NCBI RefSeq assembly: GCF_054482525.1
Contig: NZ_CM137006.1
Reading direction: 5' to 3' (one strand)
Length of the DNA stretch: 64,000 bases
A program made the position numbers and the translations under genes. Under the pieces are notes generated by a model, which was given only the letters and a program-made list of their open reading frames with translations, was not told the DNA's origin and made no database searches. Below are positions 4,205-38,138 of the stretch, piece after piece. Position 1 is the first letter of the stretch, and each line of letters starts with the position of its first letter.

Positions 4205-4231
4205 TATTCTCTTCATACATTAAGTTGTATT

Positions 4232-4259: not shown

Positions 4260-4266
4260 TAGTGAA

Positions 4267-5678: not shown

Positions 5679-5791
5679 TCCAACAGCGTATTACCTCAAT
5701 ATTTCAAAATAATTATAAGTCCCACAAATATGAAGGCGCGTCCTTAAACCGGGTAGTGCCTTCCATTATCCTAAAATTCGAGGAGCCCTAT

Positions 5792-7363: not shown

Positions 7364-7374
7364 CAGGAGGAGTG

Positions 7375-8550
7375 ATGTTTGATTTCGACAAAATCATTGA
7401 GCGTCAAAGTGATAAGTGCCGTAAATGGGACCATACCTTTGTTTGCTCGCGTTTCGGTGACGTCCCGGAGTCCTTTATCCCCCTATGGATAGCCGATATG
7501 GATTTCACCTCACCACCTGCGGTGATTGACGGTTTCCGGCGCATCGTGGAGCACGGCACCTTTGGTTATACCTGGTGCTTTGACGAATTCTACGACGCGG
7601 TCATTGCCTTCCAGCGCAAACGTCATCAGGTTGAGGTGGAAAAGTCGTGGATCACGTTGACCTACGGCACCGTATCCACGCTGCACTACACGGTTCAGGC
7701 ATTCTGCAAACCGGGTGACAGCGTGATGATGAACACGCCGGTCTACGATCCTTTTGCGATGGCGGCACAGCGCCAGGGCGTGCAGGTACTGGCTAACCCG
7801 CTGCGCGTGGAGGAAAACCGCTATCAGCTTGATTTTAATCTGATAGAAGAACAGCTCAAAACCCACCGTCCAACGCTGTGGTTCTTCTGCTCGCCACATA
7901 ACCCGTCCGGCAGGATCTGGCGCGAGGAAGAAATACGCCAGGTGTCCGATCTCTGTCAACGCTACGGCACGATTCTGGTGGTCGATGAGGTTCACGCTGA
8001 ACACATTCTGGATGGCAAATTCGCCAGTTGTCTCACCTCTGGCTGTGCCGCCCAGGACAACCTGATCGTGCTCACATCGCCCAACAAAGCGTTCAATTTG
8101 GGCGGGCTGAAAACCTCCTACTCCATGATTCCAGACGACTCGCTGCGCCAGCGCTTCCGCCAGCAGCTCGAGAAGAACTCCATTACCTCGCCCAATTTGT
8201 TCGGGGTATGGGGAATCATTCTGGCCTATCAACACGGTCTGCCCTGGCTCGACGCGCTGAACGGTTATCTGCAAGGCAACGCCCGGTATCTGGCGGATGC
8301 CCTCCAGACCCACTTCCCGGCGTGGAAGATGATGAACCCGGAATCGTCGTATCTGGCGTGGATAGACGTAAGCGCGGATGAGCGTAGCGCAACGCAGCTA
8401 ACCCAACATTTCGCACGGCAGGCAGGCGTGGTCATAGAAGACGGCAGCCACTATGTACAAAACGGCGAAAACTACCTGCGGATTAATTTTGGCACCCAGC
8501 GCTACTGGCTGGAGCAGTCCATTAACCGAATGCTGAAAAATGACAAATAA
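7375..8550 (+). CDS. PLP-dependent C-S lyase / aminotransferase class I-II (MalY/PatB-like)
   Basis: MFDFDKIIERQ... N-terminus and overall similarity to MalY; immediately downstream of the PTS gene as in the malX-malY arrangement. Confidence 0.8.
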   Translation: MFDFDKIIERQSDKCRKWDHTFVCSRFGDVPESFIPLWIADMDFTSPPAVIDGFRRIVEHGTFGYTWCFDEFYDAVIAFQRKRHQVEVEKSWITLTYGTVSTLHYTVQAFCKPGDSVMMNTPVYDPFAMAAQRQGVQVLANPLRVEENRYQLDFNLIEEQLKTHRPTLWFFCSPHNPSGRIWREEEIRQVSDLCQRYGTILVVDEVHAEHILDGKFASCLTSGCAAQDNLIVLTSPNKAFNLGGLKTSYSMIPDDSLRQRFRQQLEKNSITSPNLFGVWGIILAYQHGLPWLDALNGYLQGNARYLADALQTHFPAWKMMNPESSYLAWIDVSADERSATQLTQHFARQAGVVIEDGSHYVQNGENYLRINFGTQRYWLEQSINRMLKNDK

Positions 8551-8563
8551 GGATCTTACCCCG

Positions 8564-10453
8564 ATGAAGAAAGTGCTCACTCTCTCACTGCTGGCTCTCT
8601 GCGTTTCTCATGGTGCAGCGGCAGCAAACTACGCGCTCAATAACGACAATATTGCCCTCTTGTTTGATGATACAAACTCAACGGTCGTGGTGAAGGACAA
8701 CAAGGCTAACCATCCGCTCACGCCGCAGGAGTTGTTCTTTCTGACGCTGCCGGATGAGAGTAAAATCCACACCGCGGATTTCAAAATCAAGCACGTCGAA
8801 AAGCAGGATAACGCGATTGTCATCGACTTTACGCACCCGGATTTTAACGTCACGGTGAAGCTGAACCTGGTGAAGGGAAAATACGCCAACATCGGCTACA
8901 CCATTGCCGCCGTGGGGCAGCCGCGCGACGTCGCTAAAATCACCTTCTTCCCGACCCAAAAACAGTCTCAGGCCCCTTACGTAGACGGCGCAATCAATAG
9001 CTCTCCGATCGTTGCGGACTCGTTCTTTATCCTGCCGGATAAACCGATCGTGAATACCTACGCCTATGAAGCCACCACCAATCTCAACGTAGAGCTGAAA
9101 ACGCCGATTCAGCCAGAGGCGCCGGTCAGCTTTACTACCTGGTTCGGCACTTTCCCGGAAACCAGCCAGCTGCGCCGCAGCGTGAACCAGTTTATTAATG
9201 ACGTACGTCCACGCCCATACAAGCCTTATCTGCACTACAACAGCTGGATGGATATCGGCTTTTTCACTCCCTACACTGAACAGGATGTGCTGGGGCGTAT
9301 GGACGAGTGGAACAAGGAGTTCATTACGGGCCGCGGCGTGGCGCTGGACGCCTTCCTGCTGGATGATGGCTGGGACGATCTGACCGGACGCTGGCTATTT
9401 GGCACGGCATTCAGAAACGGTTTTAGCAAAGTACGGGAGAAAGCCGACAGCCTGCACAGCTCCGTTGGGCTATGGCTTTCACCGTGGGGTGGCTACAACA
9501 AACCGCGCGACGTTCGCGTTTCGCATGCAAAAGAGTATGGGTTCGAAACCGTGGACGGCAAACTGGCGCTGTCGGGAGCGAACTACTTTAAAAACTTCAA
9601 TGAGCGGATCATCAAGCTTATCAAAAACGAGCACATCACCTCATTTAAACTCGACGGGATGGGTAACGCCAGTTCGCATATCAAAGGCAGCTCGTTCGCC
9701 TCAGATTTCGATGCATCAATCGCCCTGCTGCACAATATGCGCAGCGCAACCCCGAATCTGTTTATCAACCTGACCACCGGCACCGACGCCAGCCCGTCCT
9801 GGCTGTTCTACGCTGATTCTATCTGGCGTCAGGGAGATGACATTAACCTGTATGGTTCCGGTACGCCGGTGCAGCAGTGGATGACCTACCGCGATGCCGA
9901 GACGTACCGCTCCATTGTCCGTAAAGGCCCTCTGTTCCCGCTGAACTCGCTGATGTACCACGGGATAGTCAGCGCCGAGAATGCCTATTACGGGTTAGAG
10001 AAGGTGCAAACGGACAGCGACTTTGCCGATCAGGTCTGGAGCTACTTCGCGACCGGCACCCAGCTGCAGGAGCTGTATATTACCCCGTCCATGCTGAACA
10101 AGGTGAAGTGGGATACGCTGGCGAAGGCTGCAAAATGGTCGAAGGAAAATGCCAGCGTGCTGGTTGATACCCACTGGATTGGCGGCGACCCAACGGCGCT
10201 TGCCGTGTACGGCTGGGCATCCTGGAGCAAAGACAAAGCCATTCTCGGTTTGCGCAACCCATCGGATAAGCCACAGGCCTACTATCTGGATTTGGCTAAG
10301 GATTTCGAAATACCGACAGGAGACGTGGCGCAGTTTAGTCTGAAAGCGGTATACGGCAGCAATAAAACCGTGCCCGTTGAGTATAAAAACGCGACGGTGA
10401 TTACGTTGCAGCCGCTGGAAACGCTGGTGTTTGAGGCGGTGCCCGTTAACTAA
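8564..10453 (+). CDS. secreted glycoside hydrolase-like protein (alpha-galactosidase-like DDGW motif)
   Basis: Signal peptide MKKVLTLSLLALCVSHGAAAA; LLDDGWDD motif reminiscent of GH27/36-type hydrolases; start alternatively at 8540. Confidence 0.5.
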   Translation: MKKVLTLSLLALCVSHGAAAANYALNNDNIALLFDDTNSTVVVKDNKANHPLTPQELFFLTLPDESKIHTADFKIKHVEKQDNAIVIDFTHPDFNVTVKLNLVKGKYANIGYTIAAVGQPRDVAKITFFPTQKQSQAPYVDGAINSSPIVADSFFILPDKPIVNTYAYEATTNLNVELKTPIQPEAPVSFTTWFGTFPETSQLRRSVNQFINDVRPRPYKPYLHYNSWMDIGFFTPYTEQDVLGRMDEWNKEFITGRGVALDAFLLDDGWDDLTGRWLFGTAFRNGFSKVREKADSLHSSVGLWLSPWGGYNKPRDVRVSHAKEYGFETVDGKLALSGANYFKNFNERIIKLIKNEHITSFKLDGMGNASSHIKGSSFASDFDASIALLHNMRSATPNLFINLTTGTDASPSWLFYADSIWRQGDDINLYGSGTPVQQWMTYRDAETYRSIVRKGPLFPLNSLMYHGIVSAENAYYGLEKVQTDSDFADQVWSYFATGTQLQELYITPSMLNKVKWDTLAKAAKWSKENASVLVDTHWIGGDPTALAVYGWASWSKDKAILGLRNPSDKPQAYYLDLAKDFEIPTGDVAQFSLKAVYGSNKTVPVEYKNATVITLQPLETLVFEAVPVN

Positions 10454-10520
10454 ACGCTTGTCCCAATGAGCAGACCGGGTAAGGCGCAAGCGCCACCCGG
10501 CAAAACCGGCAGCAGGGGCT

Positions 10521-10830
10521 TATTCCCCCTGCTGTTCCAGCGCATACTTATACAACGCATTCTTCTTCACTCCGTGGATTTCTGCCGCCAACGCCGCCGC
10601 TTGCTTCAACGGCAGCTCAGCCTACAACAGCGCCAGCGTACGCAGCGCATCGGCGGGCAGTTCGTCATCCTGGGCTTTATGGCCTTCAATAATCAGCACC
10701 ATCTCGCCTTTGCGAGGGTTTTCATCTTCTTTGATCCACGCCAGCAGTTCGCCGACCGACGTGCCGTGGATGGTTCCCAGGCGGGTGTTCATCACATAAC
10801 GGTATAGGGCATCATTCAGCGGAGCCATTA
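10521..10830 (-). pseudogene. rsmI (yraL)-like 16S rRNA methyltransferase 3' remnant with in-frame amber codon
   Basis: Minus-strand translation gives ...[86 protein letters not shown]; matches the RsmI C-terminus with CAG to TAG at 10622-10624; the 5' two-thirds is missing. Confidence 0.6.
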
Positions 10831-10932
10831 ACAGGCAGCACGCGTCAACCCAGTTGGAGAGTAACGCCGTCATTGGGTTATTTCTTTCCATAAAAATACG
10901 CAAACATGCCCCATACCTCCTGTTCCAACAGC

Positions 10933-12369
10933 TCAACCTTTCTTAATCATTGCCGAAATTGCGCCACAGTCATGAAACTTATCAAAACCAGTGGTGCCTT
11001 TGATATATTCAGTAACCAGAGTACCAATAATCTTAACCGTTTCTTTGTTCGTTGTGATAAAGCCCAGTGGCATCGTTACAGGCAATATTTCGGGTTGAGA
11101 AATATGATAGATAACGGCAGATAACTCATCCTCAAGATGAAGGATCTCAACATTACCATCTAACAGCCCCTCAACTAGTCCTTTAGCGTACTCATGGAAT
11201 TGCCCAAGTTCATACTTCCACTGTCTGGCAACCCGAGCATCAGCTGCATCCCGGACAGGTACGTACAGCACCGGTTTATACAGCTGCTTATCCTTCGTAG
11301 CCGACTTGCTAAGAAAATTGCTCAGGCTTGAGATAAATCGAATGCTTTTTGACCAGTAGGGATCTGATGGTGCCACCCAGATGAACGGGCTACCTCCATA
11401 ATCAGTTTTATCTCTGATACGCTGATTGAGCGCTGGTGCCAGAGCTTTCTGCAGCTTTTCCCAGTTGTTTTTAGAATAAACCGGACCTAAAAAAGTCGTT
11501 CTGCCTGAGGACGAGTATTCTTCCAGTGCTTGCATATCTTTGATAAACAACGGATTAAGTCGATTCGTTTTAGAGTCAAACAGCTTAAGCGTAAGGTCAT
11601 CGTTAATGGATTGCATGGCCTTAAAAATACTCATGGTATTGTTATGCCGTGATAACCTGGCTATCTCAACAGCCATTAACTCATGAACACATTCCGAACT
11701 ATTTAACTGTTCATAGTCTTCACGCTCGACAGCCTTACCATCGCTATCCATTTTAAATTCCGTTGTTAAACGGAGTGGTATTTGCCGCAGCTTATTAACA
11801 GAATTAACGGTATAGATAGAAGGTTGTTCTTTTCCGACCTGAACCTGCAGGTGAGACAGGTAACCTTTATCCAGGATTTGATTAAACTGGTATTGAAAGT
11901 GCTTCTCAACCAGTTTCTCACTTTGAGAAATGTTGTTGTCATCAACCTTTAATGTTACCCCTCCCCTCCAGTGGTCCTGAAAAGCCTGGTTGCTGAAGCA
12001 ACTAAATGTGGCTAAATCAAAGGATAAGGTACAGCCACTGTCCTGAATAGTTGAAAGATGCGGTATCTCGCCAACCTCTGAAAAATAGCCATTTGATTTG
12101 TCTGTTAAGGCCAGTCTGCCGTCTGAGGAGAGCGTCAATTCGCCACGCTGCACAAGATCGGAAATCGCCTCCTCTGTCTCACGGTGGGTCAGGCCGAAAT
12201 AGGTTGCTATTTGTGCTTTGCTCATCGAAGCTACATGAACAAGTCTCAGCACAAACTCCCGGATAAATGGCAGCCCCTTCTGGGAAACATAGGAAAACTG
12301 AATGTTAAACCTCTGTGCTGGCAGCAGGAAGTCAACCTCATGATAGGTAACTTTGTTATCAGATATCAT
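10933..12369 (-). CDS. hypothetical protein (478 aa), translationally coupled to the upstream helicase-domain gene
   Basis: ATG at 12369-12367 overlaps the TGA (12368-12366) of the upstream gene (ATGA overlap); no domain recognised by me. Confidence 0.7.
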
Positions 12370-15300
12370 TTCTTTTTGCCTCCCTGCTGAGCAGAGAGGA
12401 ACCTGTATCCAGCTTCCTGACCTCGCTCAGCCATATAACTTACAACGTAGCCTAATGGCAATTCTTTATTGTTTCCCTTCCAGATATCGGCATTACCCAC
12501 AATCAACAGTCGATCCATTGCGCGTGACATCGCGACATTTATACGGTTTGGAACGCGTAAGAAACCTGGGCTATGCTGCTTATCCGAACGCGTCAGTGAC
12601 AGGATAATGATCCGATTTTCCTTTCCCTGATAACTGTCAACAGTGTCAATTTTAACAATGTCCTTAAATCCCTCGCTCCAGATTTCCTGATTGAATTTCT
12701 GACGGAGTAACCGCTTTTGTTCGGCATACATACATATCACGCCGATAGCGGCTTCATCTTTGCTAACAAGTTTTGAAAGCTTAGCGACAAATTCTTCATT
12801 CTCTGACACCTGTTTAAGAACAGAAATAATCTCGTCAGCTTCACATCGGTTGTAAATGCTTGTTCCGCGATCTTCAAGATGATGTGCTCGGTGGCCCTGA
12901 TTAGCAGTATCAAGCCAGGTTACAACGCTACGTAACGCTTCCGGAGCTTGCTGATAGACATCCGGAATTGCCCGTACTCCATTCAGAAGCTTCCCGTCAT
13001 AAAACGTCTTCGATACGAGATTACCAATCGGTGGAGCCATACGATACTGGGTCATCAAAGCTGCACTCGTCTGCGCACCATAAGCAGAGTTGAAGGCTCG
13101 GGCAAAGTCACTTCGTAATACCTCGTCAATTTCAGTGCGGGAGTTATTGATACCCAGCTTCCTCGCTAATGCCGCCTTGTGGGCATCTGAGTACAATGGA
13201 GGAAGCTGCATGTGGTCACCCACCAACAGGACACGCCGGGCTGACTGCATTGCAATGGCCAGCTCACTTGAAATCGAGCGCGCCGCCTCATCAATAATCA
13301 CCCAGTCATAGATATTCTCCTGAATGCCAATGTGCCCTTGTCCAATACCAACGCATGTGCCAGCCACTAACTGCCTGGAGCGCGAATAAAACTCGTCCAG
13401 GTTCACTCGCTCTCCCGACATAGCATCCTGCATATCACGGGATATTTTAGCTAATGCTTTTACTCGTCTTGCCTCATCAGGTCTGACACCATACTCTGTA
13501 CATAGCTTGGAAATCAGAATGTCTTTTGCTGCTGAGACCTTCACGCCATTGTCCAAGTTAATCCCATACTCCTGACTCAGCTTAGAGCGGATGGAAAAAT
13601 CGAGTTCGACTGCAATATCTTTCAGTTCATTGCTCTCATTTGAATCCGTTAAATTGTTAACCTGATAGAGCAATTTCTCAAGGTGATCGATTTGTCTGAA
13701 CAAATTGAGCTCTGCAAGAACAACACCCGAAATAAATCCCGGCTCAAGACCAATAGCTTCACTCAATGCTTCAACACGGTACTTAATTTCAGCATTGAAG
13801 AGTTCGCGCTTCTCTGTTGTGATTGCGTGTGAGTACACATCTTTTAAGCCAGGGGAAACGGCTCCCTCTCGGTTGCTGAACCTGACAACGTCCAACTCTG
13901 TACCAAGCCGGGAACAATGCTTTCTGATACGCTCGGCCGCTGTATTCACAGCCTCGTGTGACTGGCTGACCAGTAAAATGCGTTTGGTATTCTGTTTCTC
14001 GATCAGGTAGTGAACAAAGGCCGCGATGAACTCGGTTTTACCGGTCCCCGGTGGCCCCTGAAGCAGGGAGAGAGGGCCATTATTGACCAGTTTGTTAAAC
14101 GCCTTTCTTTGCTGTTCATTCAGACTGATCTTGTTTCCGTGCTGATCTTCACGGTCGTATCTGGCAAAATCGGTATCGCTGAGAGTGATACCATAATTTT
14201 GAGCCGCCTGTTTGCAGGATGGATCGAACAAGTCAATTAAGTCAGGCAGCACACTTTCTCGATCTAGGAGACGTTCCAGTGCGCGTTTACGTTTCTGATA
14301 AGATGCACGAGTCGGCCTTGTACGGAAGAAGACAATATCAGAATCCTTCAGCTTGAAGGCTGCTGAACTAACTTTGACAAGACGAATCTCTTTGAGCTCT
14401 GACTTCTTAAGTGACACTTCACCAATAAATCGCTCAACACCTTCCTGATCGACCTGTAAGGCTTCGACTTCATCACTACTTCTGAAAGCACCGAGTGGAT
14501 CAACATCAGCAGAGTAAGGGAGAAGAAGCTCTCCATGAGCATCTGCAACCGGGACCACTTCACCGCTGATTTCAATGTTTGGATAAGATTCTGTTTCAGT
14601 ATCCAGAATGGCGCGCCACAGTTTCACTGTTGGGATTTCCAGCACTTCTCTTAAAGAAGGTTCAAGCGTCTGCTTATCAAGCCTTGCAAAGGTATCTTTT
14701 AGCTGAAGCGTAAGTGGCTCTTGTACCTGAACATCTTCAGTTGCGGCAATCAACTCGATTGCCCGCGCAAAAGATTCTTCTTCATTAAGCAATACTGTCA
14801 ACGCCGACAGATCCTGCGGACTGCCGGGAATAATCTTGATGCCAGTATCAATTTCGAACTGGCTTTCATCAATATCTTGCTTACGAATTGTGACGCGAGC
14901 CCGTGGCCTGAAGCCATGAACCAGCGTCTTCTGATCTTTGTTGAACACCGCAGTAAAACTGCCACCAATCCCAGAGAAAGTCACATTTACTTCAGCTGGC
15001 GCTTTAGGATTTGACTTAACTTTGACATACAGATGCCCGTTATCAGGCAGAATAGAGATTATTTCATCGGCATTTCCTGCAGTAATCTCTATCAGGTCTT
15101 GTTCTGGCACCAGGTCATTACTATCTATCGCTTTTTTAAAGCGGCCTAAATCCTTAAACCCAAAAACCGGATCTTCCAGCTCTGCTCGGATAGCATTCGC
15201 GATTGTCGGATAAATGTCTGATTCCAGCCCCCATGACATGCCTAGCAACTCGCAGGACATCTTCATCACTGCATAGTTGTCACGTTCAAAAGAAGTACAA

Positions 15301-15682
15301 TTATCAATGTATTCAGGGCTGTAACTGTGATTTTTAGGTTCGTCACCGGACGGTGAAAAATCGGGGATATCGATGAGAAAAAGCAAACGGCTCTGTGTCT
15401 CAAATATCACATTGCCAGGGTGGATGTCCCCGTGAGAAACACCCAGACCATGTAAGTGCTCAACGGCGGCGACAAACTTACCAATGAGGTCGATTTTTTC
15501 ATCATCGGGGACCGCTATTTTATCCCAGGTTTCTCCCTGTACCTGATCCGTGACCATATATAGGCTTGATGATTTTGATGCGATACCGAATTCACGAATT
15601 TGAGGTAGATACGTTGTTTTAACTGAAGAAAGCCGCTCAACCTGCTTTAAAAACTTCAGAACCTGGAAATTAATTGACGGAT
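12366..15682 (-). CDS. 3' portion of IS629-split gene: protein-kinase-like C-lobe plus SF1 Upf1-like helicase
   Basis: ORF track 12366..15557 (1063 aa); the frame stays open upstream to the IS629 boundary at 15682 (my manual translation). Motifs HGDIHPGNVIF and IDIPDF (kinase-like), GPPGTGKT (Walker A), VIIDEAA (Walker B), DTVDSYQGKE and VAMSRAMDRLLIVG (SF1 helicase). Confidence 0.75.
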
Positions 15683-15736
15683 TGAACCGCCCCGGGAATC
15701 CTGGAGACTAAACTCCCTGAGAAAGAGGTAAACAGG

Positions 15737-16063
15737 ATGACTAAAAATACTCGTTTTTCCCCCGAAGTCCGTCAGAGGGCGATTCGTATGGTTCTGGAAA
15801 GTCAGGGCGAATATGACTCACAGTGGGCGGCAATTTGTTCCATTGCCCCAAAGATTGGCTGTACACCGGAGACTCTGCGTGTCTGGGTACGCCAGCATGA
15901 GCGGGATACCGGAGGCGGTGATGGCGGGCTCACCACCGCTGAACGTCAGCGTCTGAAAGAGCTGGAACGTGAAAATCGTGAACTGCGCCGCAGTAACGAT
16001 ATCCTTCGCCAGGCTTCCGCTTATTTTGCGAAGGCGGAGTTCGACCGCCTCTGGAAAAAATGA
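15737..16063 (+). CDS. IS629 transposase OrfA
   Basis: 108-aa [25 protein letters not shown]... with HTH and leucine-zipper-like C-terminus; IS3-family OrfA. Confidence 0.85.
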
Positions 16064-16950
16064 TGCCACTGCTGGATAAGCTGCGTGAGCAGTACGGGGT
16101 CGGACCGCTATGCAGCGAACTGCATATTGCCCCGTCAACGTATTACCACTGTCAGCAACAGCGACATCATCCGGATAAACGCAGTGCCCGTGCGCAGCGC
16201 GATGACTGGCTGAAGAAAGAGATACAGCGCGTATACGATGAAAATCATCAGGTGTACGGTGTGCGTAAAGTCTGGCGTCAGTTGTTACGGGAAGGTATCA
16301 GAGTGGCCAGATGCACTGTGGCACGTCTCATGGCGGTTATGGGACTTGCCGGTGTTCTCCGGGGTAAAAAGGTCCGTACGACCATCAGCCGGAAAGCCGT
16401 TGCCGCAGGCGACCGCGTAAACCGTCAGTTCGTGGCAGAACGACCTGACCAGCTGTGGGTGGCTGATTTTACTTACGTCAGCACATGGCGGGGCTTCGTC
16501 TATGTGGCGTTCATCATTGATGTGTTTGCCGGATACATCGTGGGGTGGCGGGTCTCATCGTCTATGGAAACGACATTCGTGCTGGATGCTCTGGAGCAGG
16601 CGTTATGGGCCCGTCAACCGTCCGGCACAGTCCATCACAGTGATAAAGGTTCTCAGTATGTATCGCTGGCCTACACACAGCGGCTTAAGGAAGCCGGATT
16701 ACTGGCATCAACAGGAAGTACTGGTGACTCGTATGACAACGCGATGGCGGAGAGCATCAATGGCCTTTACAAAGCGGAGGTAATACACCGTAAGAGCTGG
16801 AAAAACCGGACAGAAGTGGAGCTGGCCACACTCACGTGGGTGGACTGGTATAACAATCGACGATTGCTGGAAAGGCTGGGCCATATCCCACCGGCAGAAG
16901 CAGAAAAAGCTTATTATGCTTCCATCGGAAACGATGATCTGGCAGCCTGA
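16060..16950 (+). CDS. IS629 transposase OrfB (DDE integrase domain)
   Basis: 296-aa ORF overlapping orfA; DDE transposase core; normally expressed as an OrfAB fusion by frameshifting. Confidence 0.85.
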
Positions 16951-16992
16951 GTTCACAGATAAAACACTCTCCAGGAAACCCGGGGCGGTTCA

Positions 16993-18649
16993 GATCGTAT
17001 CCCTGTCCCCCAACATTCAGCCAAGCCTTCACGAGCCTTCCTTTCGAGATATAGACTTCTTTGTCGACTGTTTCGACCTGAAACTGAAAGCCATCGTCTT
17101 CCGGGTATTGACGAGCGTGATTGATAGCATGTCGGTAAGGGTCAAGCTCAGTATCATCAAATGTTGGAATATCCTTGCCAGCAGGTTCGGCTTGTTTCAG
17201 GGCATCAAAGAATTCTGTTGCAGAAGTGAATTTTGCGGCAACGGCATCCCGTAATACAGATGAATACCAGTGCTGGCTGTTTAGCATGTTGTCCTGTACT
17301 TTCTCCAGACTCTTTGGCGACATGCGCATACCGCTAAATAAGTGCCAGGCGACAAGGCCCAGAGTATGAACATCTTGCTGAAAAGGCGTAAGCTCGCCCT
17401 TATCAAGCATGTCTTTTACGTGGACTGCACCTACGGATAAAAGCTTACGGTAATCGCCAACCGTTCCGGCTGGCTGGTGGTAAGCCGAAATAAAGTTCGA
17501 AAGAGCAACTTCTTTTGAAGGTGAAATCCACAGACTGTGATCGGCGACATCCCTGTGCGCAATTTTCATCTCATGGAGATCACTAAACTTTGCAATGAGC
17601 AGTTTCACCACATTCAAGCGGTCCATATCAGAAAAGTTCTTACCATATTTTCCGATAAACTCATTAAACCGGACATGACCCGGCGGAACTTCGTAGACTT
17701 CGCTATACTCGGCCGTCACCTCGTCTTTCTGAAAACTCGTCAAAGACCTGAGACAGTGGTTATACAGGTCACGATTCTGGTGATTGATGTGCTGTAACAC
17801 TTCGCGCTCACGTGAAACAATCTGAGCTCGTCCTTCCGGGGTATTCGCTTTCGTTCCCGTTATATTTCTAAAATTCCATACTCTGAGTAGCGCTTCGCTG
17901 TTCGTTGATATCTCAGATTTTGCCAGATATTCTCGATACACCTTTTTAGGATGTTCGAAAATCATATCATTAGCTTCATAGCCATTAACTCTCAAGGCTT
18001 TTGGTGCCGTCTGAGGCCCTAGGAACAAATCATCGAAAAGATGGAAATCCTTGTTAAGAACCTTGGTAGCTGGGTGCGGTTTGAAATAGTTATTGAAGCT
18101 CCCGCGATCGGCAAACTTCAGGAAATCTTTTAACGAGATCGTATGGCGCCGTTGTTCCTCCGGCAGCGCGCTGAAATCTGCATTGCCGGTCATCACAACA
18201 AAAAAATGAACAATCGGGATATAGCCTTTGTTCGTAAAACGGTCTACCAGACGCTTGAGTTTTTTGTCCAGCATGAATTTTTTGCTACGAGTCACGCTTA
18301 CTGGCGAGCGCCCCATGTTCTTATCACCTTTAAACCAAGTATCTCCGCGTGCGGTTACAGGCTGATGGTTCCAGTCTTTCAGTTCAACAATGATCACGTT
18401 GCAGTGTGTTACAATAACTAAATCGAATTCCCCCTCTTTTTTTGCCTCAACAAATCGAAAACCTGCATAACCTTTCCAAGGGAACATTTCATTGCCGATA
18501 AAACCATAGCTTTTTAGCTGCTCACTAATTGAACCGCTACGGAAAGGCTTGTCAGGCTTAGATACGTTGACTGAAAAAGCAGCTTTTATTTTCTCGATAG
18601 CCAATACTTCCTGTTCTTGTAAGCCACCATCCCACATTTCTACTTCCAA
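16993..18649 (-). CDS. 5' portion of IS629-split gene: NERD nuclease-related domain plus protein-kinase-like domain
   Basis: TTG start at 18649 preceded by AAGGAG; NERD-like signature EFDLVIVTHCNVIIVELKDW; kinase-like HRD at KIAHRDVADHSLWI and DVHTLGLVAWHLFSG. The annotated ORF runs on into IS629 (to 16832), so its last about 50 codons are IS-derived. Confidence 0.75.
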
Positions 18650-19311
18650 CGGTGTTCTCCTTAAATTTCAGTAAAAATAAGGTCATTTATTCTGGTCAAT
18701 ATGGCAGGTTTCGATGTTTATAGTTCTGAATACTATGGTGTTTTACACGTTCATTCTGGTTATTATACGTAGAAAAGAATTTATCGGGCAACGCCGAGAT
18801 GACGCGGCCCCGTTAAACCGTGTAGTGGTAGATGATGAGATCAGATACAGGGATCAACTGACGGTGAGCGCAGTCCCCACATTTTATCCGGAGTTTACCG
18901 CTATTCCCGGCTGCCATTCGTTAGCACAGGCCCGCAAGTACCCTGATTTGCCGCTGGTTTTGCTTTCCCATCGAAGGGCCCATACATCATCACGCCCGCG
19001 AAACAGTCGACAAAATAACGCAACTTTCTCATCCGTGGATAATACGGAAACGCACTGCACAGGACTCTGCGGTTTACGTCACCATTCAATCCCATAAGCT
19101 TCAAGTTATGTTTGCCCTCAGTGCAGCTAATTCATCACTGTCAGATTTATGAACCATATTCGTTACCTGTATCCGATCCACTGAGGCACCACGGCAGAAA
19201 TTCGGGTCCCCTACACTGATGACAAAGCGCCCCGCCCTCTTCTGCCTATTAACTCAAGCACCTCCCAACAACTTACAGAAACTTAATTCTAATACCTAAT
19301 ACAACTGTAAT

Positions 19312-19875
19312 TCAGTTATGTCGTGGTCGGCCCCGGTTGCTTTTTTCGGGAAGCCTGCTACGGCCCAGAATAATACCGTGTTCTTTCTGATCCTGTTTAG
19401 CCAGGTAGCTAAGGGCGTAACGTAAACCGTCTACCGCAGACTTATCACTATAGTGAATCACGTGATCGATACGCACCGGGTATTTGTCTTTAGTACTGCA
19501 CAGGTGAAAATAACCCTCCCCTTCCGTGATCCGACTCCAGATATCTCCCAGTTGCCTGGATATCCGATAAAATTTCTTGTGACGTTGCCCATCCAAGTAG
19601 CCGATAAAATGAATATGAAGTCCCTTGTTTGACGTATATTCCATTACCCAGTAATATCCCGCCAGCATCGTTTGGGTTTCACTAAGTAAGCGGTGCATTT
19701 CAATACACATACTGTGCCTACAGGAATGACCAAAACTGGGCGTGTCTTTCCTGTAGGCAAAATCAATTCTGAAAGGTAACAGTTTAGAAAAACGTTGAAA
19801 CAGACCTTCCATGTGTTCATTCACGTCTTTCAGAATCATGAAGTCCATTTCGTAATTGGGATTAGCATTATACAT
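19312..19875 (-). CDS. island-associated protein (YfjJ-like / inovirus Gp2-type family, by recollection)
   Basis: 187-aa ORF; character of CP4-57-type island backbone proteins; family assignment from memory only. Confidence 0.45.
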   Translation of the reverse strand: MYNANPNYEMDFMILKDVNEHMEGLFQRFSKLLPFRIDFAYRKDTPSFGHSCRHSMCIEMHRLLSETQTMLAGYYWVMEYTSNKGLHIHFIGYLDGQRHKKFYRISRQLGDIWSRITEGEGYFHLCSTKDKYPVRIDHVIHYSDKSAVDGLRYALSYLAKQDQKEHGIILGRSRLPEKSNRGRPRHN

Positions 19876-20695
19876 TTTATAGTCCTTACTTTATAAAAGT
19901 TACAGGAAGGTGGAATTACATAAATACTGAGAGTACAGAAACGCCGTACCGCGGCATTAATAAACGAGGTAACCAGCAGCACAGACAACCTGATAAAACT
20001 GTTTCGTATTACCTCATTACTCCAAAGAGGTAATATTTCAGAGTACAGTAAGACTCACTTAAACTGAGGACCAGTACGAATTACAATGGTAAAAACACAC
20101 CTCATAGAATTGAGTTTAAGGAAGTACCATTCAATCACTTACAGGAAGTAATCTGACATTCACAAAAGCCAGTATCGGGTAGCCACAGGCAACACCGCTA
20201 TTAATACTTCTGTACCATTAAGTAAAAACAGCGACCCAGCTTAAGGCCTCTACAGATATTTAACTTCACCATAAAAATGATGGTATACAGACCATACCCC
20301 ACACACCATAAGAATATTATTTCATACAGGAAAGATTATATTTTTTCATACCTATAAACTGTAACAGAGCCATAACATACTCTAATAGTGTTCCGGTACG
20401 TAACCAGTGTTAAGTGCGTACAAGACAACATAACAGATCACATAACTTCCACTAATAATACTAATTAACCTAAATTATTTATTGAACACGAAAACAATGA
20501 AGGCCCCACCTCACCTCAGACTAAAGCCGACAATATCCTGAGCAACACTCTATCCAATAGTAAATAGTGGTTACACCAGTTATATTTACTGACTGACCTG
20601 TACCAGAGTTTTCTAATACAACGCTGACATGGTAAAGACATTAGTCTCCTCCGCAAGTAGCAGAGGAGACTATATGTACTCAACGATTAAGTCGT

Positions 20696-22147
20696 TCAGA
20701 GGTCAAAGTTAGGTGCGACACACAACGTTTTTCCCTCAATAACCGGTACAACTCTGTTTTGTTCATACAGTAAATCCAGTAACCAGTTGATTTTATCCTT
20801 TTTCCGGAAACGGTTCGGACCACGCTGTAAAATGTCATTTTTTTTCATACAGAGGATCCCCTTCTCAATACAATAGCTTTTTATCCAGTTGAAAAGTTCA
20901 AGCTCCTCTGGAATGAGTCGCACAGGTACGGTCAGGGCAGAGTTGTCAAAAGTTAACGGATTAGACAACCGCACATACTCATTACCGTACCATATTGCTA
21001 ATTCTCTCGCCATTTCTGCAGTGTAAGGGGAAATCTCCCCCTCTTCACCGCTCGAATGGTAAATAAGTCCTGCCAATCTTGCCATATACTCTGCATTTTT
21101 AGCAGCATATTCCCGGCAATGTCTTAAAGGCCCCAATCCCCCCAGCTTCGATTCCACATCATTGTAATAATCCGTCCAGATTCTGGCAGCCTGAGGAGAA
21201 AAGTGAAGGCAACGTCGTTCACCACTCATCGCCAGACTTTCATCAATAAGCTCATTGATCCTCTCTTCAAACAAATCCTGATACTGTGATGAATAATTAT
21301 CTCCGGTTATTATCCTTGTCCCCTGCGTTGATGTTGGTTGACACATCAAAAACCTTGCATGATGTCCTGACGTTTTCACAATTTCTTTTTTTCGCGTACA
21401 AAAACCTTTGTGGTAAACATCAGGCTGAATCATCACCGATATCGTCAGTCTTGGCTCCTTCAAATTAATTCCGGGAGATGATTTCCTGTCGATGAAAAGA
21501 GAACCTCCATCCCACAAAGTGTTAATAATTCCCAGTTTACTCATGGCCCGGCTGTCAAAAATTACCCCCCCTTCACTGGATACAAGAGCAAAAGAGCGAT
21601 TGCTATCGGAGTAATATTTTAACATTCCCTCTATCGTTGTCTCATTAAAAATTGTTCGACGTATCTGCGGCGGAACAGGAGGTTTATTCAGATGCGTTTC
21701 AAGCTCTGATTCTGTTGCCTTGTAATCTTTACCGGCACGAATCTCTTTATGAAATTTTGATTCCAGCGCTTTTTGTTTTTGCTCCCATATTTCCTTTTCT
21801 GTACTGTAATTCTCAACCAGTTTCGCGTATTCTTCCGCCAGGGCTTCATCCCTGAGATAAAATGCTTTCATAAACACTTTATCCACGGTCGTTTTCCTTT
21901 CACCGGAATCAGCCAGAATCAGAGAGTAAAGATTAACAGGCCCATGTAAATTTCCAGGTCTGCATACGTCAATCTGATTCTGACAGGCAATTGAGATCGC
22001 TGTTAATGCGGATGTTGCCACCATAGCCAAAGGTGCCTGTGTATTTTTTTGAGTTTCAATTATTGCATTTCTCACCAGCGGTGGTAGTGCATATATCGGA
22101 TAAGGATTTTCTGGTGCAAGTAAGCACATAAAAGCCTCTCTTTTCAT
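20696..22147 (-). CDS. DUF3987-type (YfjI-like) island protein
   Basis: 483-aa ORF; resembles the large P-loop-less YfjI/DUF3987 proteins found beside AlpA in P4/CP4-57-like islands. Confidence 0.55.
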   Translation of the reverse strand: MKREAFMCLLAPENPYPIYALPPLVRNAIIETQKNTQAPLAMVATSALTAISIACQNQIDVCRPGNLHGPVNLYSLILADSGERKTTVDKVFMKAFYLRDEALAEEYAKLVENYSTEKEIWEQKQKALESKFHKEIRAGKDYKATESELETHLNKPPVPPQIRRTIFNETTIEGMLKYYSDSNRSFALVSSEGGVIFDSRAMSKLGIINTLWDGGSLFIDRKSSPGINLKEPRLTISVMIQPDVYHKGFCTRKKEIVKTSGHHARFLMCQPTSTQGTRIITGDNYSSQYQDLFEERINELIDESLAMSGERRCLHFSPQAARIWTDYYNDVESKLGGLGPLRHCREYAAKNAEYMARLAGLIYHSSGEEGEISPYTAEMARELAIWYGNEYVRLSNPLTFDNSALTVPVRLIPEELELFNWIKSYCIEKGILCMKKNDILQRGPNRFRKKDKINWLLDLLYEQNRVVPVIEGKTLCVAPNFDL

Positions 22148-22347
22148 TAATGGGTTAGTAAAATAGCAGCAAATCCCGCTACAATAGCGAAAATAGCTGC
22201 TATTCAGACCTGATGCTCTGAGAAATACAGAGCATTTGTAGATCTGATGTTTAATAAACCGATAAGGTTAATTCAGTGAAGACTGTATTATTCACCACGA
22301 AATATCATTCATATTTCTCATTCTTAATACCTCCAGAAATTATTTCA

Positions 22348-22680
22348 CTAATACCTTTCCCCCGGTCTTTTCCCTTTCTCCAGAACCATAGTGTAAATAT
22401 TAACGGCCCCACGTAAATTTCCGGGACTGCATACGTCAACCTGATTCTGACAGGCAATTGACATCGCTGTTAATACTGACATTGCAACCAGAGTCAGAGG
22501 TACTTGTTTATTGTATTGAACTTTAATTATTGCATTCCCTATCATTGATGGTCATGCATATACTGAATACGGCATATCCGGTTTGATGTAAGGCATAAAT
22601 GCTTCCTTTTTCGTAATACGTTTCGGTTATAGCAGCAATTACCGCTACAATAGCGACAATAGCTGCTCTTTCAACAATGA
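22348..22680 (-). pseudogene. diverged tandem duplicate of the 5' end and promoter of the DUF3987 gene
   Basis: 22380-22670 aligns at roughly 80 percent identity with 21900-22200; the 65-aa ORF 22348..22545 repeats the N-terminus of the 483-aa protein (VPLTLVAMSVLTAMSIACQNQVDVCSPGNL versus APLAMVATSALTAISIACQNQIDVCRPGNL). Confidence 0.5.
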
Positions 22681-22771
22681 ATGCTGGAAATTCTGTTTAT
22701 CAATTAAACTTCTGGCTAAATTGTTCTTATGCTTCTTTTTCCTCCTGAGGTGATCACGTGATGACAAAAAC

Positions 22772-23080
22772 TTATCTGCTCATGGTCATATCTGAAGAAA
22801 GCGTATGTCTCACTTCGTCATTAACACCTTTGACTGCTGATCTGGCAGGTACAGTATGTAAAGTAAGCCATTCGTCAATAGCTGATGAACGCCAGCCCAC
22901 AGAACCACTACCAAGACGTACCGGCCTGGGGAAGGTTGCATCGTAGTATTTCGATAACGGATTCATTTTTTCGTAAATTGTCGAACGAGATATACCTAAC
23001 AATTGGCTCAGTTCAGGCATCCGTAAGATGCGTGAAGGAGTCCTGCAGTGTCCGGATTGATCTGGCATTTTATCCCCCAT
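22772..23080 (-). CDS. alpA: AlpA-family transcriptional regulator / excisionase-like
   Basis: ORF 22772..23152; the region RILRMPELSQLLGISRSTIYEKMNPLSKYYDATFPRPVRLGSGSVGWRSSAIDEWL matches the AlpA HTH family; start codon uncertain. Confidence 0.6.
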   Translation of the reverse strand: MGDKMPDQSGHCRTPSRILRMPELSQLLGISRSTIYEKMNPLSKYYDATFPRPVRLGSGSVGWRSSAIDEWLTLHTVPARSAVKGVNDEVRHTLSSDMTMSR

Positions 23081-23229
23081 AGTGTGGTGAACTGTCGTTA
23101 CAGTTTGTATTCCCCGGGTAAATTTGTCTGCGTAAAAAAATGGGTTGAGCAAAAAGACAATAAATAATTAAAAATCAATATGATAGAAAACGACAGCATT
23201 AGTGTTATTTTACTTTTCCCTTATCGCTG

Positions 23230-23990
23230 TCGATTCTCATTATCATTCATGGCAAAAAAACAGCAAAAGAGGCCCTGGTAATGACTCCTGTCAGTAGTAC
23301 ATGTGTTTTCGATAAATGAACCAATGGCTTTTCGTGAATTTCCAGGGAGCGTAAAAAGTAAATCGTTTTCCGGGCAGGTCGTTTGATGTGAGTACGAAGT
23401 GTCAGATTGTTGCGCTCAATGCGCCGGGTAAATATCTTGCCGACAAGATGCTTATCCTGTGGCATTTCTCTGGTATAACTGCTCCGGTTGTCTCTGGTTA
23501 TCATGCCTGCGGAGAATGGCTTCAGGAATTCCGGCAACTCACGGCATGTTTCATCAGTGCGAGGACCAAAAGTGTAAGCCAGCACACCGTCAGCTTTGGT
23601 CTTATACGCGTACCAGTGCCACTGCTGACGAGCTTTGTTTTCGACAAAACTCCATTGTTCATCAAGTTCACAGATAAGTGCCACATCGACACTGGCGGCT
23701 GGAGATATGGTTACTTTACGTGGTGAGCGTTTTTTAAAGTGAGAATGACGGTGTTGATATCCACCTTCAGCGTTCTGGAGCTATCGCGAACCCCGGCTCC
23801 GTTATGAACCATTTCAACAATTTGCTCTTTAATGCCTGGTTTTCGGGTTTCGTAGATGTAATTCAGTTGAAATACACGTTTGCAGGATTAGCACTGGAAA
23901 CGCTCATGATCTGAGGTGCTGTGATCATAACGGTACACTTTATAGGAATTACAGCGGGGAGAATATACTGTAACTGTTGCCATATGGTCT
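23230..23990 (-). mobile_element. IS1-family element remnant (InsB-like ORF and InsA-like frame with premature stop)
   Basis: ORF 23247..23684 resembles IS1 InsB (ELDEQWSFV..., FTRRIERNNLTLRTHIKR); an upstream minus-strand frame starting MATVTVYSPRCNSYKVYRYDH is InsA-like but stops early; boundaries approximate. Confidence 0.45.
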
Positions 23991-24179
23991 CCAGATACCA
24001 ATAGAATACAACATTAATCTATCGTCAGAAGGCATCACCGGGGCCTTCTGACATAATCTGTTAATACGTGTACTATTACCCTGTTCAGAAAACATTGATT
24101 CAAAAATGAAAACCAGTTAACAGAAAAGCAAAATGATATAATGTTAAAATTTTATATAGTGCAATAAAAGGAGAATGTT

Positions 24180-25997
24180 ATGTATAATTTTATCACTATA
24201 ATGTATGATGTCTTTTCATGTTTTGGTGTTCTGGCTAAAAACCAGAATAGCCGTGACATCCGAAATATTAAAAATTTTTCCTCACATCAACATTCACTGG
24301 GCGACATGTTTGATGAATTAATAAACATTATTGATAAAGAACAAGTATTGAGTAAAGAACAACGAAAAGTTATATTTAGGAGATATGAAGATCTCTATGT
24401 TAAGCTAATGCACTATTCTGTTTTTACAGACAAAACACATCAAATAATAAAACAAAAATATTTTAATGACATTGTACCAATGATTCTCGCACTCGACATC
24501 AGGAACACATATCGCCCGGATAATGAGATGGCATTTTACTATCATATTCATTCTTTTCTCACTCAGATACCGGATAATGAGGATGATATATATCATGCTG
24601 CAAGGACATATCTGCGAAATTACGTTAAGTTATGTTTATCCGGATACACGCCAGCGAATGCGCATTTCAAAGATATCTTTGATGGCGTATATGAATTCAT
24701 TCGTAATATTCGCAAAAACAGTACACCAGGAAAAACAAAACTTATCGCAACTATCAACACATGCAAAGAAACCTGTAAACATCTGCTTTATTTAAGTAAT
24801 GAAGACAAGGAAAAAATAATTTCTGACTTAGATAAAGTTCAGGTTGCATGTTATTATCTCACTATATTACTGGCTTTCGAAAGACGAACTTCATTAACAA
24901 GCACCCTGGCAACTTTATATAAAATGCTGATAAGCGAAAGAGAAGTTTCAGAATATGAATGCCAGTTATTATATTTAACCAACCCAATAGATGTAATGAA
25001 TATACTGAACAAATACATATATTACTTTCCTAATGAGAACTCACCATTTTATACACTGAAAATTGACAGTGCATTATCGTGGGATGCCATTGACGCAATA
25101 CGAGACTATAGTATTTCTGATATTTATCTTTATCCTGAACAAAAAACAATAAATTGTGTCGTTGAGATTGAAAACATTGTCTTTGGCGGTTACATTTATA
25201 CATTGAACAACGGCGTCACATTACAAAACATAGAAAACTCTTTAAAAGATTCTTCATGCCATTATGTCTTAAATGGCTATACAGAATTTGTTAACTGTTT
25301 GAGACAACTTACTTCAGGAAAGACTGAAAGTGTTCATCGCACCATCAATAAACTGAACTATGAGAAATTACCTTTTGGATTTATCATTGCCGCGTTTGCT
25401 ATACTAAAGATAGCATTTAAAATAAAATTCAGTAAAAATCATGTAAATATCCGAGCATTATTAAATGACATCAATTATTTTATGACTTATCAGGGCGAGT
25501 CCATTAACCTTATTTCACTGGATCACGAATACCCAGAGTCCTGTCTTCAAAATGACACAAACACATATTTATTAGGAAGAGTAATATTTCTGTATAACTC
25601 AATGATTTATAAGTTCATAAACTGTCAGGAACATGAAACCAATAACATTCACTCAGCTATGATAAATAACCTATTACAGGAAGTTGATATAGCCCTTGGT
25701 AAAATAAATGACATTATAGACAGCAGAAACATATCAACCCCCCATGAACTGGCAAATATTCTTACCCGCGAAAAAATACTTACAACACGGGAAAAAAAAG
25801 GAAACCTGATAAGCCTGTTTGATGGATTCACTTTATTCCATTGTGTTGGAATGATAACCTTTCTTATCCATTATCTCAGAACACCTGAAGAAAAAGTTGA
25901 AAATATATTTATGTTATATGGTGCAGATAAAAACAATAAACTACGCAGAAGACTGATTTATGACGCACTAGGAATAATTCAGTCTCAGCAGGAGTGA
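24180..25997 (+). CDS. hypothetical protein (605 aa), strongly AT-rich orphan gene
   Basis: ATG at 24180 preceded by AAAGGAG (24167-24173); no motif recognised; composition far more AT-rich than the backbone. Confidence 0.6.
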   Translation: MYNFITIMYDVFSCFGVLAKNQNSRDIRNIKNFSSHQHSLGDMFDELINIIDKEQVLSKEQRKVIFRRYEDLYVKLMHYSVFTDKTHQIIKQKYFNDIVPMILALDIRNTYRPDNEMAFYYHIHSFLTQIPDNEDDIYHAARTYLRNYVKLCLSGYTPANAHFKDIFDGVYEFIRNIRKNSTPGKTKLIATINTCKETCKHLLYLSNEDKEKIISDLDKVQVACYYLTILLAFERRTSLTSTLATLYKMLISEREVSEYECQLLYLTNPIDVMNILNKYIYYFPNENSPFYTLKIDSALSWDAIDAIRDYSISDIYLYPEQKTINCVVEIENIVFGGYIYTLNNGVTLQNIENSLKDSSCHYVLNGYTEFVNCLRQLTSGKTESVHRTINKLNYEKLPFGFIIAAFAILKIAFKIKFSKNHVNIRALLNDINYFMTYQGESINLISLDHEYPESCLQNDTNTYLLGRVIFLYNSMIYKFINCQEHETNNIHSAMINNLLQEVDIALGKINDIIDSRNISTPHELANILTREKILTTREKKGNLISLFDGFTLFHCVGMITFLIHYLRTPEEKVENIFMLYGADKNNKLRRRLIYDALGIIQSQQE

Positions 25998-26183
25998 AGA
26001 GTTAAACAGGCAAATTATTTTTTATAAAAAGGGGATTGTTAAGTAATCCCCTGTTAATCAAAATACGCTTTCCTGACGATCTGATAATTATCAGCTCAAT
26101 ACATTTGACATAAAAGCGGTTTCTTAATTACTACTGCTACGATCACATATCAAATCATGATCGTACAATATACATTTTCACTA

Positions 26184-27386
26184 TTATTTATTCACAATTT
26201 GAGACATCACATAATCCGCCCATGCCTGCATCATCGGTACACGCTGCTCCAGTAGATCAGTACGATGATATGCCGCCTCAACCTTATTTTTCAGCGTATG
26301 AGCGAGCGCCCTTTCCGCCAGATCCCGCGAATACCCCTGTTCGCTACACCAGTCCCTGAATGTTGAGCGAAAACCATGTGCCGTGGCAACTCGCCCCGGA
26401 ATGTCACTGACGGCTTTCTTTTTACGCAGAAAACTTGTCAACACCATATCGGAAAGGATCTGCTGCTTTCTGGGTGAAGGGAACACCAGTTCATCATGCA
26501 GGCCACGTATATTTTCCAGAATGTAAATAGCCTGCCGGGATAAAGGAACACGATGCTGTAGCCTAGCTTTCATTCTTTCTGCAGGTATAGTCCATACCCG
26601 CTTATGAAAATCAATTTCAGCCCAGCGCATTCCCCTGGCTTCGCCCGAGCGAGTTGCTGTAAGTATCACCATTAATAACAGTGCGCGGGTAACATTATAA
26701 GGTTCATCGGTATACACACTGGTCGCCACAAAAAGCGGTAACTGCCTCCAGGGCATTGCGGGTTGGTGTTCATCACGTCCTCTTGTCTGCTGAGGAAGCA
26801 AATGGTCAACCACATCAACAGGATTTGCTACACAAAAACCGTGCGCCCATCCCCACTGCATAACAACATGAATGCGCTGTTTAACCCGGCTTGCCGTTTC
26901 TGACAAGGTTAACCAGACTGGACGCAGTGTTTCTGCCACGTCCGCAGCCGTAATCGAATCCAGCGTTTTTGCTCCCAGTTGAGGAAACGCGTAATTCTCA
27001 AGCGTCGATAACCACTGCCTTACATGCTTTGGATTTTCCCATCCAGGAGACAGTTCTGCATGTACACGCCTGGCTGCATCGGCAAATGTTGGGATAGCGA
27101 CTTTCTCAGATTCAGCCTTTTTAATCTCCAGAGGATCATCACCTGCAGCAAGTTGCTCTCGCATTATCCGGGCAGTACGTGCAGCTTCAGCAATACTGAC
27201 CTCTGGGTAAGTTCCCAATCCAGCATTACGTCTTTTTTGTGTCACCGGACTTACATAACGAAAAACCCATTTCCCCCGCCCCTTTACTGAAGAAGGATGA
27301 AGGGTCAGTCCGGTAATTCCCCCATGGGGCAATGGTTTGTCATCAGGTTTGATATGTCTTGCTTTCGTATCCGTCAATACTGCCAT
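26184..27386 (-). CDS. int: tyrosine site-specific integrase (P4/CP4-57 IntA-like)
   Basis: 400-aa ORF with phage-integrase C-terminal catalytic region (...HGFRSTFRDW...LAHTL...AYHRTDL); N-terminus lies about 160 bp from the island-end direct repeats. Confidence 0.85.
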   Translation of the reverse strand: MAVLTDTKARHIKPDDKPLPHGGITGLTLHPSSVKGRGKWVFRYVSPVTQKRRNAGLGTYPEVSIAEAARTARIMREQLAAGDDPLEIKKAESEKVAIPTFADAARRVHAELSPGWENPKHVRQWLSTLENYAFPQLGAKTLDSITAADVAETLRPVWLTLSETASRVKQRIHVVMQWGWAHGFCVANPVDVVDHLLPQQTRGRDEHQPAMPWRQLPLFVATSVYTDEPYNVTRALLLMVILTATRSGEARGMRWAEIDFHKRVWTIPAERMKARLQHRVPLSRQAIYILENIRGLHDELVFPSPRKQQILSDMVLTSFLRKKKAVSDIPGRVATAHGFRSTFRDWCSEQGYSRDLAERALAHTLKNKVEAAYHRTDLLEQRVPMMQAWADYVMSQIVNK

Positions 27387-27546
27387 ACGCTAATTCCCGT
27401 CACTCTGGTATGCCATCCAGTATGCCATTAGTCTCTCGCTTCACTAAGAATACATTAGATAATATCGGACAACAAAAAGTGTAATACATTGTTTATAATG
27501 AAATTATATAACACCCCTGGATTAAGTCAGATTTATTTCAGGCGGT

Positions 27547-27606
27547 CCCCCTCACCGCCATATTCAAAGAAGAGCTCGTACGAAAGTGCGAGCTTTTTTT
27601 TCGCAT
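27547..27606 (+). repeat. direct repeat copy 1 containing a tRNA 3'-end-like motif (TCCCCCTCACCGCCA) and a terminator-like hairpin plus T-run
   Basis: Near-identical to 27724-27785 (one substitution and one indel); the ...CTCACCGCCA end resembles the acceptor/CCA end of tRNA-Ser. Confidence 0.5.
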
Positions 27607-27723: not shown

Positions 27724-27785
27724 CCCCCCCCTCACCGCCATATTCAAAGAAGAGCTCGTACGAAAGTACGAGTTTTTTTTCGCAT
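27724..27785 (+). repeat. direct repeat copy 2 containing a tRNA 3'-end-like motif (AATCCCCCCCCTCACCGCCA) and a terminator-like hairpin plus T-run
   Basis: See copy 1; this copy has a longer match to a tRNA-Ser T-arm/acceptor 3' strand, but no complementary 5' acceptor strand (GGTGAGG) exists upstream, so it is not an intact tRNA. Confidence 0.5.
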
Positions 27786-38132: not shown

Positions 38133-38138
38133 GATTAT

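Follow-up and report, generated by a model that had tools for sequence, protein, structure and literature searches.

The 64-kb window analysed here (the whole stretch of DNA, 64,000 nt) contains an insertion sequence (IS) within a minus-strand gene. The question it raises is whether the element arrived by one simple transposition, which gene it entered, and what the entry did to that gene and its neighbor. We consider it very probable that a single clean insertion of an IS629-group element into mkoA inactivated a type I Mokosh system. According to this explanation, an active element of the IS3 family, moving by copy-out-paste-in, would have transposed once into mkoA at codon 548/549, duplicating GAT. 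This would have split the gene, so that its 5′ part yields a protein with an IS-encoded tail, and its kinase-helicase part would have been severed from the native promoter and start codon. The coordinates of the features are collected in Table 1.

Table 1. Features of the interrupted mkoA-mkoB locus and of the inserted element, in positions of the window.
Feature	Position	Strand	Evidence or remark
mkoB, 478 aa, intact	10933..12369	-	PADLOC MkoB, 503 bits
mkoA 3′ fragment, codons 549-1652 (Pkinase 577-657, SF1 helicase 1065-1635)	12366..15682	-	without promoter or start
Target-site duplication, left copy, GAT	15680..15682		single GAT in the empty site of other genomes
Insertion sequence, IS629 group, IS3 family, apparently intact	15683..16992	+	1,310 bp
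Left terminal inverted repeat (IRL), 5′-TG start	15683..15707	+	25 nt, 92% complementary to IRR
orfA, 108 aa, HTH_Tnp_1	15737..16063	+	Pfam, 47.7 bits
Frameshift region: A6 slippery run at the orfA/orfB overlap plus ALIL pseudoknot	16018..16134	+	Rfam RF01497
orfB, 296 aa, HTH_21 plus rve integrase core	16060..16950	+	Pfam rve, 96 bits; NCBIfam transpos_IS3, 315 bits
mkoA 5′ fragment, codons 1-548 (NERD plus first kinase-like domain) plus 53 IS codons	16832..18637	-	stop 16832-16834
Right terminal inverted repeat (IRR), CA-3′ end	16968..16992	+	pairs with IRL
Target-site duplication, right copy, GAT	16993..16995		single GAT in the empty site of other genomes
Candidate native mkoA promoter, TTGCCC-18-TATAAT, 10/12	18762..18791	-	consensus match only

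The anatomy of the element was observed directly, and its exact length of 1,310 bp was obtained by reading the sequence. At the left edge, the flanking GAT is followed from 15683 by TGAACCGCCCCGGG... (also given as TGAACCGCCCCGGGAATCC...), and the right edge reads ...CCCGGGGCGGTTCA up to 16992, followed by the second GAT. A repeat search reported one inverted pair, 15683-15707 / 16968-16992, corresponding to the two terminal repeats. Within the 64 kb, the terminal 14-mer has two exact occurrences, one per IS end, with 0.01 expected by chance. No further full or partial copies of this IS were found in the window, and a literature search with the same 14-mer returned zero papers. OrfB carries the catalytic residues D136, D195 and E231, the last two with a 35-residue spacing, and K238 seven residues past the glutamate, i.e., a DD(35)E plus K arrangement. 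The A6 run at the overlap of the two reading frames, GGAAAAAATGATG, lies inside an ALIL pseudoknot that was matched over its full length (RF01497, 120.2 bits vs. a gathering score of 50). Thus, the element shows the characters of the IS629 group of the IS3 family: a length of about 1.3 kb, imperfect TG...CA repeats, two overlapping ORFs, a -1 frameshift signal, DD(35)E with K, and a duplication within the 3-4-bp range. The exact values are likewise shared with the IS629/IS1203/IS3411 isoform group, namely 1,310 bp, 25-nt imperfect TG...CA repeats, orfA of 108 aa, orfB of 296 aa, A6 with ALIL, DD(35)E plus K and a 3-bp duplication.

By the ISfinder convention, more than 95% nucleotide identity denotes isoform-level membership. 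The window IS shows 96.2% identity (50 substitutions) to the O157:H7 copy named IS1203 in RefSeq, and it differs by 36 substitutions from the copy in mkoA of strain E597. IS1203 has been described as an isoform of IS629, for which duplications of 3-4 bp are reported (PMC3271280). The label IS629 that an earlier note had given to the element is thus correct at group level only, and we leave the named isoform unassigned. Chromosomes of other E. coli, as well as plasmids of E. coli, Proteus mirabilis and Providencia, carry full-length copies with 100% identity to the window IS, which argues that this isoform is intact, circulating and currently mobile.

A 3-bp match between two flanks has by itself a chance probability of 1/64. 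We therefore turn to the empty site, for which the IS and one GAT were removed and 600 bp of each flank were joined into a 1,200-bp query. Of the 5,426 complete E. coli genomes, 331 contained an uninterrupted match to this query; identity was ≥99% in 319 records and 100% in all 40 of the matches listed. When the flanks were aligned with the intact locus L001, the left alignment ended at 12600 and the right one began at 12598; for a further intact locus, L002, the corresponding positions were 12496 and 12494. Since the flank alignments overlap by exactly 3 bases, the empty site has GAT once. The GAT duplication is thereby confirmed as genuine. The earlier note had described intact termini, GAT on both sides (15680-15682 and 16993-16995), and a simple transposition that left no recombination scar. 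All three are borne out here: the termini by the sequence read and the 25-nt inverted repeats, the duplication by the single GAT of the empty site, and the mode of insertion by the intact ends together with the 3-bp flank overlap vs. L001 and L002. The note had also considered that relatives might carry GAT twice in the empty site, in which case the triplets would not be a duplication; the relatives carry it once.

Deletion of the IS together with one GAT restores a single ORF of 1,652 aa on the minus strand, whose product matches RefSeq WP_001333439.1 at 100% identity; against L001, the restored locus shows 4 differences in 6,988 bases. Pfam domains detected in the restored protein were NERD (residues 53-135), Pkinase (577-657; 41.1 bits vs. 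a cut-off of 31.7), and AAA_11 (130.7 bits), AAA_12 (144.1 bits) and a UvrD-type SF1 helicase (1065-1635). PADLOC indicated in addition a second kinase-like region, PglW-like, at residues 53-442, and its MkoA HMM scored 2,206 bits over residues 1-1648. The ATG of the second gene overlaps the stop codon of the first in a 4-bp ATGA and is preceded by its own Shine-Dalgarno sequence, GGGAGG; the encoded protein is 100% identical to RefSeq WP_000622487.1. Type I Mokosh was defined as consisting of a COG1112/Upf1-like helicase that includes a Ser/Thr kinase domain and of a second, separate gene (Millman et al., 10.1101/2022.05.11.491447). The locus in the window shares with that definition two adjacent, overlapping genes, a first product in which a Ser/Thr-kinase domain accompanies a COG1112/Upf1-like SF1 helicase, and full-length matches to the PADLOC MkoA and MkoB HMMs. 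On these profile matches, the target is assigned to mkoA-mkoB, a type I Mokosh anti-phage defence system. The locus differs from the definition in that its mkoA is interrupted, so that only one of the two genes is intact, and in that the 1,652-aa subtype, which is a PADLOC HMM assignment, adds the N-terminal NERD domain and the PglW-like kinase region. We found no evidence of experimental testing of this particular 1,652-aa Mokosh subtype. The target gene, unnamed in the earlier note, is now identified as belonging to mkoA-mkoB.

A further difference concerns the second protein. The Mokosh definition includes a PLD nuclease. PLD enzymes have been described with an invariant H-x-K-x4-D motif, which MkoB of the window does not contain: the H-x-K motif is absent throughout its 478-aa sequence, and Pfam gave no PLD match even at E ≤ 10. 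A structure model was obtained with AF2 from 35 homologues, with a mean pLDDT of 67 (moderate confidence). The best Foldseek matches of this model belong to the PLD superfamily (vaccinia F13, NucT, Zucchini/PLD6 and Nuc), with weak scores (E from 2e-4 to 3e-2, TMt about 0.5), and an N-terminal winged helix was seen alongside the PLD-like part. The model thus supports a predicted PLD-like fold for MkoB, but one without the canonical active site. The question of the MkoB fold has no bearing on the IS finding.

The insertion point is located directly after D548 (codon 548/549), between the two kinase-like domains of MkoA, and the IS transposase is encoded on the plus strand, antisense to mkoA. 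The truncated MkoA product counts 601 aa, of which 548 are native and 53 are encoded by the IS; the earlier estimate of about 50 IS-encoded C-terminal codons was thus correct. In the 3′ fragment, the first in-frame ATG is found at 15557 (M590), inside the Pkinase domain, and no Shine-Dalgarno sequence precedes it. A transcript from the native mkoA promoter would have to traverse the roughly 1.3 kb of untranslated sequence that follows the stop at 16832 before it reached the downstream fragment, so polarity on the helicase fragment and on mkoB is to be expected.

For the downstream half of the locus, the earlier note had left two options, silencing or expression driven from the IS. Because the IS is antisense to mkoA, it is its left end that adjoins the downstream fragment. 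Under the second option, an outward-directed IS promoter would transcribe the helicase fragment together with mkoB and give a shortened but active system. IS elements are known in general to provide outward or hybrid promoters, and the Shine-Dalgarno sequence that mkoB carries of its own would suit such a transcript. However, the left IS end facing the fragment has the element's own promoter pointing inward, and in a consensus scan no minus-strand promoter-like site was found within the IS or in 15300-15700 (i.e., in 15300-16992). Moreover, translation from M590 would start without a Shine-Dalgarno sequence and would cut into the Pkinase domain. We give this option a very slight chance, and an outward IS promoter, for which there is no consensus site on the relevant strand, was considered and dropped. 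Silencing of the downstream fragment is more likely, as far as the sequence can indicate, and of the two options it is the one that stood. Promoter-like sites were seen on the minus strand inside the 3′ fragment (14801-14774, 13681-13653, and 12369-12340), where their frequency is that of chance, and the total number of such sites in the mkoA region is also at chance level. Some MkoB synthesis could result from these internal sites together with the gene's own Shine-Dalgarno sequence. Terminator-like matches at the IS ends (16983-16971 and 15691-15676) occur at chance frequency and were given no weight. Mutations in the helicase ATP-binding site were reported to abolish Mokosh defence (Millman et al., 10.1101/2022.05.11.491447), which argues that the system is likely null here. 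We infer that this strain most likely lacks a working Mokosh system, with loss of defence and polarity on mkoB as the predicted consequences of the insertion.

The age of the insertion was approached through its distribution. Sequences of 300 bp spanning the left and the right junction were compared with the 5,426 complete E. coli genomes, and neither IS/mkoA junction was found in any of them (0/5,426) at ≥80% coverage. The left-junction 36-mer was absent from GTDB representative genomes and from JGI metagenome contigs, and an exact protein look-up returned no record of the 601-aa chimeric product. Thus, the insertion was absent everywhere else we searched. As the restored MkoA and MkoB are both 100% identical to RefSeq proteins, the locus shows no secondary decay. 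Together with the 100% identity of the IS to copies elsewhere, these data fit a young, strain-private event and lend support to the recent inactivation proposed before, where "recent" has to be read as a relative term. The reason lies in the genomic context. The mkoAB locus is carried on an E. coli genomic island integrated at the serW/clpA site. ARAGORN found no tRNA despite this position at serW, because only 3′ fragments of serW are present there (27546-27562 and 27724-27742, by sequence read). Strains SCU-102, 19KM1776 and PCN033 share 22 kb of adjacent core with the window at 100% identity, and their serW site is empty, with infA, tRNA-Ser and clpA adjacent and without any island. The three closest core relatives therefore indicate a recent, lineage-specific acquisition of the island. 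The comparison with relatives lacking the IS, which the earlier note had proposed, could not be made with these three strains; they are unsuitable as IS-free comparators since the whole island is missing. Island-matched strains (99.9% identity) were used instead, and in these mkoA is intact.

Since the island itself is newly acquired, the IS could predate the transfer and have reached mkoA while the island was still in an unsampled donor, so that the broken island was then acquired horizontally and the interrupted allele inherited. The empty serW sites of the three core relatives, which make the island lineage-specific, speak for such a history. Against it stands that neither the junction nor the chimeric product turned up in any of the further genomes, metagenome contigs and gene records searched, and that the mkoA fragments have not decayed further. 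We regard an inherited allele as unlikely. An assembly artefact, in which a repeated IS copy was misplaced, is also conceivable in view of the multi-copy nature of IS629-type elements in many E. coli (a median of 4 places per genome), as such repeats often cause misassembly. Yet the junctions are precise to the base, the 3-bp duplication is perfect and the flanks are exactly collinear, which a misassembly would not produce, and we assign this explanation a next to negligible probability. A single insertion of the element into mkoA accordingly remains the reading that we prefer.

The element is already known, and so is the phenomenon, the ordinary loss of a defence gene to an IS. What is added here is the target, assigned to type I Mokosh, and a higher probability for silencing than for expression driven by the IS. 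IS insertions in cas genes provide a documented case of IS-mediated inactivation of immune genes (PMC10359306). The present locus shares with them a natural IS insertion in a defence gene, with a probable null allele as its outcome; it differs in that the target is Mokosh and not CRISPR-Cas. It is one more case of IS elements eroding defence islands and involves no new mechanism or element type. In practice, software that searches for defence systems would either overlook Mokosh in this strain or report as present what is most likely a null allele, which is of relevance for annotation and for the prediction of phage susceptibility, e.g., in phage therapy and host-range work.

Lesions in mkoAB were also observed in other E. 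coli strains. The intact mkoAB locus, used as a query, gave a match in 352 genomes, only 311 of them at ≥80% coverage, and the genomes below that coverage carry remnants left by deletions. YJ3 is one of several strains that have lost the 3′ half of mkoA and the entire mkoB. In strains E597 and E686, mkoA has been hit independently by another IS629-type element, at about codon 958, in the same orientation and with the duplication ACC; the IS of these strains is 97.25% identical to that of the window. Thus, IS629-type elements have entered mkoA on at least two occasions and in one and the same orientation. When the 1,063-aa C-terminal ORF was looked up by exact match, it was found in 23 contigs, none of which carries this IS; they have other lesions instead, and those uncovered in this way were K584*, Q561*, S550*, a +1 frameshift and, in GCA_002227955.1, an end of ISVsa5/IS10 that adjoins about codon 561 of mkoA. 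The number of independent mkoAB lesions suggests that the system may be frequently dispensable or costly.

From here, one could go further and read the locus as an instance of recurrent, selected Mokosh loss, with the IS as a possibly reversible on/off switch of a costly defence system and with a 601-aa NERD-kinase remnant that might keep or gain activity. Precise reversal has its precedents, as IEE promotes excision of IS629 (PMC9943667) and reversion of an IS-disrupted lacZ has been reported (PMC9397093). The window shares with IEE-promoted excision an IS629-type element whose duplication is intact and which is in principle excisable with restoration of the gene; should IEE-type precise excision occur, the ORF would be restored and GGATACGATCCGTCA regained, which is conceivable. 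It differs in that no iee gene is visible within the 64-kb window, and reversibility is speculative here. We consider this extended reading highly unlikely as a whole. Codons 550-584 of mkoA were also considered as a possible hotspot of lesions. The hotspot was rejected as an ascertainment artefact, because the look-up of the 1,063-aa ORF sees only the 42 codons before M590.

Comparison of mkoAB (window 10933-18637) with loci L004-L015 of other E. coli and with the individual database matches H141, H165, H173, and H176-H182 revealed many independent lesions at the Mokosh locus across these other E. coli, and deletion remnants of mkoAB were found in about 41 of 352 genomes.

Features of the window and mkoAB lesions of other E. 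coli
Feature	Position	Strand	Detail
serW (tRNA-Ser) 3′-end, copy 1	27546-27562	+	
serW (tRNA-Ser) 3′-end, copy 2	27724-27742	+	
CRISPR full repeat, 28 nt	27843-27870	-	Rfam CRISPR-DR4, 50 bits
CRISPR partial repeat	27790-27811	-	
mkoA, second IS629-type insertion	~codon 958		duplication ACC; E597, E686
mkoA, ISVsa5/IS10 insertion	~codon 561		GCA_002227955.1
mkoA, K584*			
mkoA, Q561*			
mkoA, S550*			
mkoA, +1 frameshift			
mkoAB, 238-bp deletion			SLK172

RefSeq starts MkoA at the ATG at 18637. A Shine-Dalgarno sequence, AAGGAG, in window 18640-18662 (minus strand) precedes a TTG at 18649 by 7 nt and that ATG by 19 nt. Judging from the sequence, this TTG may be the real start, which would extend the product by 4 residues.

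The definition of Mokosh includes a PLD nuclease, whereas the MkoB subfamily of window 10933-12369 (minus strand) lacks the H-x-K(x4)D motif and gives no match to Pfam PLD. The AF2 model suggests a MarR-like winged helix at the N-terminus of MkoB, together with a PLD-like domain. Residues H229 and H422 were invariant in 35 homologues.

The other cargo of the island (window ~3100-10900 and 18700-27400) was named from annotated loci of 99.9% identity. It includes agaR, malX, a MalY-like gene, a 629-aa ‘enterotoxin’ gene, so called in these loci, a pseudogene of a 16S rRNA methyltransferase, an inovirus Gp2-like gene, YfjI, IS1 remnants, and a tyrosine integrase. A TOTE-system primase pseudogene is located immediately upstream of mkoA.

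The stretch from the island integrase (26184-27386) to clpA contains two copies of the final ~17-19 nt of tRNA-Ser (…CCCCCTCACCGCCA), each followed by an identical terminator-like sequence; RefSeq annotates ‘RtT sRNA’ at this position in related strains. A scan of the entire window with ARAGORN detected no complete tRNA. The fragments resemble remnants of att sites left by islands that integrated in tandem, and the intact serW appears to lie past the left edge of the window. Adjoining clpA is also a vestigial type I-F CRISPR array (27790-27870, minus strand), with a spacer of ~31 nt between its full and partial repeats and no cas genes nearby.

A second integrated element (~31700-41620) is flanked by clpS and yljB/cspD. 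It has genes for an integrase, a primase, an Icd-like protein, an SSB, and a ClpP-like prohead protease/major capsid fusion protein, and on this gene content it appears to be a phage satellite. PADLOC gave no matches among its tested ORFs, and the element is missing from all three closest core relatives (SCU-102, 19KM1776, and PCN033). Strain 266917_2 carries a similar element, differing over 38493-39634.
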